NCBI GenBank assembly: GCA_902519835.1
Contig: CABYLU010000003.1
Location: forward strand, 24,916 to 88,915
Length of the DNA: 64,000 nt
Direction of reading: 5' to 3'
Source: an uncultured Pelagibacteraceae bacterium
GTDB lineage: Bacteria; Pseudomonadota; Alphaproteobacteria; Pelagibacterales; AG-422-B15
Positions 32,265 through 34,039 of the stretch are shown here, piece after piece. Numbering within the stretch: position 1 is the first letter of the stretch; each line of letters opens with the position of its first letter. The notes below the pieces were generated by a model. It worked only from the letters and a program-made list of their open reading frames with translations, was not told the DNA's origin and did no database searches. Position numbers and translations under genes: made by a program.

Positions 32265-33105
32265 TTAATTACCAAGATATAAATTATTATCAATCCAATT
32301 ATTAATATTCTTAATATCTATGATTTTTGGATTAACGATATTTGAATTTTTACCAAAAAACTTATCCATATTAACTTCATTTAATTTTACGATATCAAGA
32401 AATTTTATTCTTTTCTTTATAAATAAATTAACCAAAATCTCATTCAAGTAATTAAATATATGAGGTGCTAAGCCGCCAATTTTCATTACTTGATAGCCTA
32501 GTTCGATTGCTGGAAACTTATCTTTATCTATTGGAATAAATTCAAGGTTCGAATAATTAGTCAATTCGATGCCACTATAAACATTAGAATATTTATTAAA
32601 TCCAAAAAATAAAGATGAAATAGGAACTCGCATATCTGGCTTGTTTAATAGTGCTGTACTAATACCATTTTCATAATTTATTAAGGCATGAACAATAGCT
32701 TGAGGGTGTATTATAGCATTAATTTCACTGTTTTTCAGATTAAATAAATATTTAGCTTCTATTATTTCAAGTGCTTTATTCATCATTGTAGCTGAGTCAA
32801 TTGAGATCTTGCTACCCATATTCCAAACTGGATGTTTGATTGCTTGCTGAGGTGTTACAGAGCTCAATTTCTTTTTTTTATAATACAAGAATGGTCCACC
32901 TGTTGCCGTGATGGTAATTGATTTATATTTTCCTAAATTTTGACTTAACAAATGATAAATTGAATTATGCTCTGAATCTAAAGGTATAATTTTAGTTTTA
33001 AATTTTTTTGATAAACTTATAAATTTCGTTCCAAGAGTAATTATGCATTCTTTATTCGCAATACCAACAATCTTCCCTGATTTTAATATCTTTAATAAGA
33101 GATCT
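32265..33105 (-). pseudogene. dxr: dxr (DXP reductoisomerase) fragment lacking the 5' NADPH-binding region
   Basis: The tracked ORF (32265..32951) starts at a TTG. In-frame homology continues upstream: ...ASLDLLLKILKSGKIVGIANKECIITLGTKFISLSKKFKTKIIPLDSEHNSIYHLLSQ... The N-terminal ~100 aa, including the GSTGSIG motif, are absent. The frame runs into the ftsK fragment and a stop near 33150. Confidence 0.85.
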
Positions 33106-33109
33106 AAAG

Positions 33110-34039
33110 ATGCTTGAATTATCAGTATATGAAGGTGTTCCTCATCTAATCACTCCAGTTGTGACTGATCCAAAAAAAGCAATTGTTGCACTTAAATGGG
33201 TCGTTAGAGAAATGGAGTCTCGATACAAAAAAATGTCCTTGTTAGGTGTTAGAAATATTGAAAACTATAATCAGAGAATGGTTGAAGCTATCAAAAAGTC
33301 GGAAAAGATAGTGAGATCAATCCCATCTGGAATAAACCCAGAAACTGGACAGCCAACAACTACACAAATTGAAATCGAAAATAAAAAGATGCCTTTTATT
33401 GTAGTTGTTGTTGATGAGATGGCTGACTTGATGATGGTTGCAGGAAAGGAAATTGAACACGCAATTCAAAGACTATCACAAATGGCAAGAGCAGCGGGAA
33501 TCCACTTAATTATGGCCACTCAAAGACCGAGTGTTGATGTGATTACAGGAACTATTAAAGCTAATTTTCCGAGCAGAATTAGTTTTCAAGTAAGCTCGAA
33601 GTTTGATAGTCGCACCATTCTTGGTGATGAGGGGGCAGAGAGACTGTTAGGCAAAGGCGATATGTTAATGATGACTGCTGGTGGAATTACATCGAGAATA
33701 CACGGTCCATTTATATCAGATCAAGAGATAGAGAATATTGTTCGTGCACTTCAAAAACAAGGTAATCCAGAATATGATGAAGAAATATTAAAAGAGGAAG
33801 AAATTGAGAATGATCTTGGAGTAGTCTCCGACGGTGATCACGATAATTTGCTACAGGACTCTCTGGATGTTATAAAAAAAGAAGGTAAAGCATCTACGAG
33901 CCTGTTACAAAGAAAACTACAGATTGGATATAATCGTGCAGCAAGAATAATGGATCAACTTGAGGAAAGTGGATACATAAGTGCTGCAAATCATGTAGGT
34001 AAAAGGGAAATTAATTTTGATAAATTTAATTCCTCATGA
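33110..34039 (+). pseudogene. ftsK: ftsK fragment: C-terminal part of the motor domain plus gamma domain only
   Basis: Begins at [24 protein letters not shown], which is mid-motor in full-length FtsK. Walker B VVVVDEMADLMM and the gamma wHTH LLQRKLQIGYNRAARIMDQLEESG are present. The TM domain, linker and Walker A are missing. The upstream in-frame sequence is non-homologous, with a stop at 33038-33040. Confidence 0.85.

Follow-up and report, generated by a model that had tools for sequence, protein, structure and literature searches.

Head-to-head truncation of dxr and ftsK in a Pelagibacteraceae contig: a probable template-switch chimera

Why should two essential genes be cut at one and the same point? 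The question is raised by a stretch of 64,000 nucleotides from an uncultured Pelagibacteraceae bacterium (the whole stretch is called the window here), in which a dxr gene on the minus strand and an ftsK gene on the plus strand, both lacking their 5' parts, meet head to head close to position 33110. The window is AT-rich (about 29–35% G+C, hereafter GC), densely coded SAR11/Pelagibacterales DNA, and the loci closest to it are titled Pelagibacteraceae or Pelagibacterales. The original prediction, made from the sequence, suspected a chimera or mis-assembly rather than biology, formed at a GATC site within the palindrome AGATCT. The suspicion of a chimera proves to be the best-supported reading; the palindrome mechanism does not stand. 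We conclude that the seam is very probably an artefact of one kind or another. More specifically, it is probably an in vitro chimera of the amplification type that has found its way into a public assembly, not a structure of a living chromosome.

The two gene remnants and the crossover

What is left of each gene? The dxr remnant, recognized by Pfam and by protein and nucleotide homology, occupies 32265–33110 on the minus strand and comprises codons 103–383 and the stop codon, dxr ending at 32265. Native Dxr in the relatives has 383 residues, with the NADPH-binding motif GATGSIG at residues 10–16. In the alignment with a full-length relative (P0001, 383 residues, 93% amino acid identity) the homology begins at S103, and the first 102 codons, GATGSIG among them, are absent. 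Read on the minus strand, the frame runs ...QA, SLDLLLKILKSGKIVGIANKECII and, further on, KIIPLDSEHNSIYHLL; beyond 33110 it continues as non-homologous residues to an in-frame stop at 33150–33152. This agrees with the prediction that the homology would run past an internal TTG start to about 33105–33120, with a stop near 33150 and some 100 residues of the NADPH-binding part missing. Pfam recovers DXP_redisom_C (profile positions 1–84) and DXPR_C. The central catalytic domain (PF08436, E = 3e-34) and the C-terminal domain (PF13288, E = 8.7e-22) are thus both present, while the N-terminal NADPH domain with its GxxGxxG motif (PF02670), which a functional Dxr would carry, has no Pfam match on the fragment.

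The ftsK remnant, recognized by Pfam and nucleotide homology, lies at 33106–34039 on the plus strand and encodes residues ~450–758. Its open reading frame (33110–34039, 309 residues) opens with an ATG at 33110 that corresponds to the internal Met451 of native FtsK, and the nearest upstream stop in this frame is at 33038–33040, as had been noted. Native FtsK in this clade is a protein of 758 residues with a 4TM domain (PF13491), an alpha domain (PF17854) and a Walker A motif at 416–423. With the first 450 codons gone, what remains is the second half of the motor domain, matching positions 81–221 only of the FtsK_SpoIIIE profile (PF01580), with Walker B (from residue 548; VVVVDEMADL) and the gamma domain that binds FtsK-orienting polar sequences (FtsK_gamma, E = 1.1e-24). 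The 4TM domain, the alpha domain and Walker A, expected of a functional FtsK, are absent from the window protein both by Pfam and by alignment to the relatives. The earlier account of an FtsK that starts in mid-motor, with Walker B and gamma retained but the transmembrane part and Walker A lost, therefore holds in every part. Both genes are truncated at their 5' ends at one point and, if the sequence is read at face value, Dxr at least would not function.

Where exactly does one gene give way to the other? Three native dxr and four native ftsK sequences were aligned across the seam. The dxr loci are an NCBI contig from a metagenome-assembled genome (MAG) or single amplified genome (SAG) (L088, 88.7% nucleotide identity), an ENA marine metagenome contig (L099, 90.3%) and the 1.19-Mb ENA contig hoskyn_2 (L100, 93.2%), and the homology ends at 33110 in each. 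Three of the ftsK loci come from JGI marine metagenomes (L001, L002 and L006, 97–99.5%) and the fourth is the 1.30-Mb ENA contig monsoon_2 (L089, 94%); here the homology begins at 33093–33106. Base by base, all three dxr parents match the window through 33110 and none does so past it, while all four ftsK parents match perfectly from 33106 on. The crossover therefore falls in the interval 33106–33110, a perfect microhomology of five nucleotides, AAAGA. It is bounded by a dxr-specific T at 33105 and an ftsK-specific T at 33111. At the breakpoint native dxr continues as …AAAGAAGTTAGTCC… and native ftsK as …TTAATTGATCCAAAGATG…; upstream of it ftsK is full length (758 residues) in L089 and runs to the contig end in L001, L002 and L006.

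The five bases lie within a wider, imperfect parental match of 12 nucleotides (33101–33112), in which the dxr antisense strand, GATCTAAAGAAG, and ftsK, GATCCAAAGATG, are identical at 10 of 12 positions. This stretch is the probable annealing site. When 200,000 random inverted joins were simulated from the sequence itself, P was 0.0096 for five or more perfectly overlapping bases and 0.0012 for a match of 10/12. By these values the join was guided by homology, and is neither blunt nor random.

What, then, is the part played by the palindrome? AGATCT does lie at 33100–33105, where it had been reported, and the two homologies do abut beside it, their overlap being just to its right. It is, moreover, a BglII site, and both parents carry GATC at the same offset, 33101–33104 (L006 being the one ftsK parent that has GACC instead), as a ligation of the Sau3AI, DpnII, MboI or BglII type would ask. 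But the palindrome is native dxr sequence. It is unchanged in the three intact dxr genes and so was not created by the join. At the same position ftsK has TGATCC, a sequence recognized by neither BglII nor BamHI (L006 has TGACCC). The decisive base is 33105. It is C in all four native ftsK sequences, whereas the window shares its T with dxr; in the ftsK frame this T would turn the proline of the IDPK motif, found in all four, into leucine. A ligation at GATC would have left the C of ftsK, so the crossover lies within AAAGA, to the right of the palindrome. The junction is a microhomology or template-switch signature and not a restriction-ligation scar.

ARAGORN and Rfam scans, run to see whether a tRNA gene or RNA family marks the seam as a hotspot of integration or recombination, found none. 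In all 64 kb of the window, densely coded as it is, ARAGORN finds no tRNA gene and no Rfam family reaches its gathering score.

Native surroundings of the two genes

Is the seam the only irregularity in this DNA? The window is collinear with relatives at 5805–27427 (L101 and L102), 22324–33110 (L100), 33093–44087 (L089) and 52213–64000 (L103–L105). Since all other parts of the window that can be checked are collinear, the seam is a single isolated break.

On its left, dxr is followed by its native downstream neighbour bamA (29995–32256, minus strand; Omp85 and POTRA by Pfam, 753 residues), in the same order as in L088 and L100, which marks this segment as a normal dxr-bamA-skp-lpxD-fabZ-lpxA block. 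The two genes are directly adjacent, with a gap of 9 bp, and the same direct adjacency is seen in L088 (10001–12054) and L100 (9219–12642). In many Proteobacteria the rseP gene, encoding a RIP metalloprotease, stands between dxr and bamA. On the right, ftsK is followed by its native downstream neighbours lolA (LolA by Pfam) and a glnA-like gene (34036–35999, plus strand). The order ftsK-lolA-glnA-like recurs in L001–L007 and in L089, and the right segment is thus a normal ftsK block. Downstream of lolA, at 34641–36660, are the glnA-like gene (Gln-synt_C, 452 residues) and a Trans_reg_C regulator. In the SAR11 genome of Ca. P. ubique HTCC1062 lolA is followed by an acetyltransferase and a HIT protein (SAR11_0325–0327; PMC2864753 supplement); local synteny beside the seam differs between SAR11 lineages.

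How far apart do dxr and ftsK normally lie? Upstream of native dxr, on one strand, is the series lolCD-dnaE-rpsB-tsf-pyrH-frr-uppS-cdsA, leading into dxr-bamA (L088, L100). Native ftsK is preceded by a divergent gene of 386 residues on the minus strand in L008 and by ubiH in HTCC1062; further upstream in L089 are a major facilitator superfamily transporter, purH, rpe and acs. By tblastn and tblastx, none of the genes natively upstream of dxr or ftsK is found in the 64-kb window; by tblastx the two native upstream regions have nothing in common, and no flank is shared within 10 kb upstream or 31–33 kb downstream. With no native upstream gene in the window, the two loci must natively lie over 40 kb apart when co-oriented, or over 20 kb apart when divergent. 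A simple deletion between divergent neighbours was considered and rejected: the 386-residue gene upstream of ftsK in L008 is unlike Dxr, and HTCC1062 has ubiH in that place.

In HTCC1062, ubiH-ftsK-lolA is SAR11_0323–0325 and cdsA-dxr-omp1 is SAR11_0911–0913 (PMC2864753 supplement). Both series of tags ascend along transcription, from which it follows that dxr and ftsK are on the same strand there, and ftsK (SAR11_0324) and dxr (SAR11_0912) are 588 locus tags apart. If, as we assume, this genome comprises about 1,354 genes in 1.31 Mb, 588 tags correspond to ~0.57 Mb. With the genes on one strand and this far apart, the head-to-head join of the window would be of the long-range, inverted type. 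Both the distance of ~0.57 Mb and the shared strand are transferred from a more distant SAR11 genome and would apply to this lineage by analogy.

Is the seam to be found elsewhere? Nine proteins, taken from both flanks, were tested and all map to a single NCBI contig of 96,865 bp, which is unannotated; cutting out the window therefore did not create the join. The junction 28-mer, TAATAAGAGATCTAAAGATGCTTGAATT, has no match among 241 million JGI metagenome records. A 32-mer from the dxr side has a sole match, the native dxr contig L099. Yet both sides are represented in metagenomes: the left by L090–L098 at 98.8–99.6% identity and the right by L001–L007 at 97–99.9%, partly from the same samples as the left-side sequences. 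The right-side contigs that reach the breakpoint (L001, L002 and L006), whose LolA is identical to that of the window, continue upstream as ftsK to the contig end. A scan of genome contigs, dominated by the conserved DEMADLMM motif and returning mostly distant Alphaproteobacteria, had only L008 and L009 as SAR11 among the matches listed; the missing 5' parts of dxr and ftsK were not among the matches listed either. Were the seam one end of an inversion, a reciprocal junction would be expected, in which ...TTAATTGATCCAAAGA, from the 5' part of ftsK, runs on into the dxr 5' part read in antisense, AGTTAGTCCACTTGC....

Origin of the join

If the join was guided by homology, in what setting did it form? 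We propose that a strand-displacing polymerase of the phi29 type would have switched template during single-cell whole-genome amplification. A strand growing on the dxr antisense strand as template would have been displaced. Its free 3' end (...GATCTAAAGA) could then anneal, with one internal mismatch, to the near-identical ftsK stretch GATCCAAAGA, and would be extended into ftsK. The chimeric amplicon would in turn have been amplified, sequenced and assembled into the contig of 96.9 kb.

The seam resembles the chimeras formed in multiple displacement amplification (MDA), as described by Lasken & Stockwell (2007, BMC Biotechnol 7:19; PMC1855051). Of these, 85% were inverted and 76.8% had 2–21 nt of junction complementarity. 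At the seam, too, the joined segments are non-adjacent natively and the second is inverted, its orientation being judged from HTCC1062; complementarity is five perfect bases in a wider match of 10/12, and so above the minimum of two; and the break is clean, free of filler and isolated in an otherwise collinear contig. A preprint on the single amplified genome workflow of the Single Cell Genomics Center (SCGC), in a passage quoting Stepanauskas 2017, gives an average of 1.5 mis-assemblies per 100 kb (bioRxiv 10.1101/2020.04.07.029462), at which rate about one would be expected in a contig of this size.

Was the source DNA amplified from a single cell? The nearest NCBI relatives of the window bear GCA_9025–9026 accessions with CAC* prefixes, and the CABZHU and CACJWR records among the matches are labelled as AG-numbered NODE contigs. 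We take these to be SCGC/GORG-Tropics single amplified genomes made with WGA-X. The source of the window is thus presumably a single amplified genome, and the join would have arisen at amplification rather than in library preparation or assembly.

Several points weigh against an origin in amplification. The amplified, single-cell origin of the source is presumed from the accessions of its relatives, and the junction is known here from the assembled sequence. The distance spanned is large, over 40 kb for co-oriented and over 20 kb for divergent genes, and ~0.57 Mb by the HTCC1062 map, while in the class that prevails among MDA chimeras the segments lie less than 10 kb apart (PMC1855051). Only 127 of 475 (27%; 69 inverted and 58 direct) had join points more than 10 kb apart, and 337 of the 406 inversions were within that distance, which would place the seam in the minority, intermolecular class; moreover, complementarity was found in only 34.8% of the inverted chimeras of more than 10 kb (same source). 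Strand and distance are based on HTCC1062, whose local gene order departs from that of this lineage immediately downstream of lolA. Finally, microhomology is equally a mark of illegitimate recombination in vivo, and to tell the two apart takes more than the sequence of the junction.

Could the chimera have formed downstream of amplification, or without it? The candidates are a chimeric library insert, recombination in the polymerase chain reaction of library preparation, and an assembler join of two contig ends carried by a few chimeric reads; chimeric contigs are documented for MAGs and SAGs alike (PMC10523443). We consider this unlikely, though it is the strongest of the alternatives. Five shared perfect bases are far below the k-mer of an assembler, so that a repeat-induced graph error, and with it the short-repeat mis-assembly that had been suggested, is improbable and a physical chimeric molecule must have existed. 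The unannotated contig of 96.9 kb and the AG-like accession style of its relatives also fit a SAG better than a short-read MAG.

In a variant of this explanation the source would be a metagenome bin, and the two sides could derive from two SAR11 cells or strains. Composition at first seems to favour it. GC steps from ~0.285–0.29 on the left (1–33105) to 0.33–0.35 on the right (33106–64000), and tetranucleotide frequencies correlate less well between the two sides than they do inside the left half. But the step is intrinsic. The homologous regions of the relatives show the same regional values, 0.28–0.29 in L100 and L101 on the dxr side and 0.33–0.345 in L089 and L103 on the ftsK side, and we therefore rejected it as a sign of two organisms. 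As read from these sequences, the step is that between two chromosomal neighbourhoods; regional differences of about 5 GC points seem to be conserved among SAR11 chromosomes.

Might the rearrangement, on the other hand, be real? Illegitimate recombination in vivo, whether an inversion of ~0.5 Mb or some other event, could have broken dxr and ftsK by way of AAAGA. A single inversion with both breakpoints in co-oriented genes, as the two would be by the HTCC1062 map, would leave exactly this arrangement, two genes that meet head to head without their 5' parts. The junction is clean and contains neither Ns nor foreign filler, and its microhomology, significant in the simulation, is typical of illegitimate recombination in vivo as well. 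The GC skew at third codon positions changes sign, from -0.026 on the left to +0.030 on the right, a difference too weak to settle the orientation of replication. In E. coli a C-terminally truncated FtsK can be tolerated, and a cell might survive the loss of this end of the protein by itself.

The dxr side is another matter. Dxr would lose its NADPH-binding domain together with the promoter-proximal part of its gene, and bamA-skp-lpxD-fabZ-lpxA would be severed from their upstream operon. The presence of ispDF in the window indicates, as had been said before, that the methylerythritol phosphate (MEP) pathway is in use; we place this gene at 9760–10902, with IspD and YgbB Pfam hits on its collinear homologue in L101. 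To our knowledge there is no alternative route to isoprenoid precursors in SAR11. With Dxr lost, the inversion would be lethal and could not persist in the lineage. There is no second copy of dxr or ftsK within the window, and the junction does not recur, as a genuine inversion should, in the JGI metagenome contigs, where those with an identical LolA run upstream as ftsK.

Comparison with known rearrangements points the same way. Natural large inversions that persist spare essential genes, which the seam does not, and they usually proceed via long inverted repeats (rRNA operons, insertion sequences), where the seam has five nucleotides. Microhomology-mediated end joining, and events of the type of fork stalling and template switching or microhomology-mediated break-induced replication, do share with the seam a microhomology exactly at the crossover and an extended imperfect match around it. 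However, phi29 polymerase leaves the same signature in vitro, and these processes yield heritable alleles, whereas the seam would give a lethal product, which the population does not show. A real chromosomal rearrangement is thus very improbable. Its narrowest form, in which a single uncultured SAR11 cell was caught with a fresh, microhomology-mediated inversion of about half a megabase, and which would offer a direct glimpse of a harmful or lethal structural mutation in a wild, streamlined genome, we rate a shade lower still; the odds of catching a fresh lethal event are orders of magnitude below the SAG mis-assembly rate as that preprint quotes it.

Restriction and ligation at GATC, or an engineered join, is barely credible, given the dxr base at 33105 and the single deposited contig that carries both flanks, the latter speaking also against the deliberately joined sequence that had been entertained.

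A template switch during amplification thus remains the probable origin, and the seam is almost certainly a quality flag on a public contig rather than new biology or a real feature.

Consequences for SAR11 genomes

How would the seam appear to a user of the deposited contig? Automatic annotation would report two genes: a Dxr C-terminal open reading frame of 228 residues (32265–32951), starting from the internal TTG, and the FtsK C-terminal open reading frame of 309 residues at 33110–34039.

The long contigs used here for comparison call for a caution of their own. L089 and L100, near-complete and pilon-polished, carry many split genes, suggesting residual indel errors. In L100, dxr is split into 234 and 105 residues, bamA is in pieces, dnaE is split into 940 and 68 residues, and fabZ has 120 residues; in L089, purH is split into 359 and 93 residues and the gene upstream of ftsK into 280 and 113. 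Truncated genes in these two contigs are not to be taken as pseudogenes.

What does the seam mean for the study of this group? The mis-join places in a public collection two essential genes falsely shown as truncated, along with a spurious adjacency. Used at face value, it would mislead analyses of the SAR11 pangenome, of gene loss and pseudogenes, and of synteny and inversions. It also offers a worked example of how a template-switch chimera may be told from a restriction-ligation scar, the distinction being resolved here by a base-by-base comparison with the parental genes.

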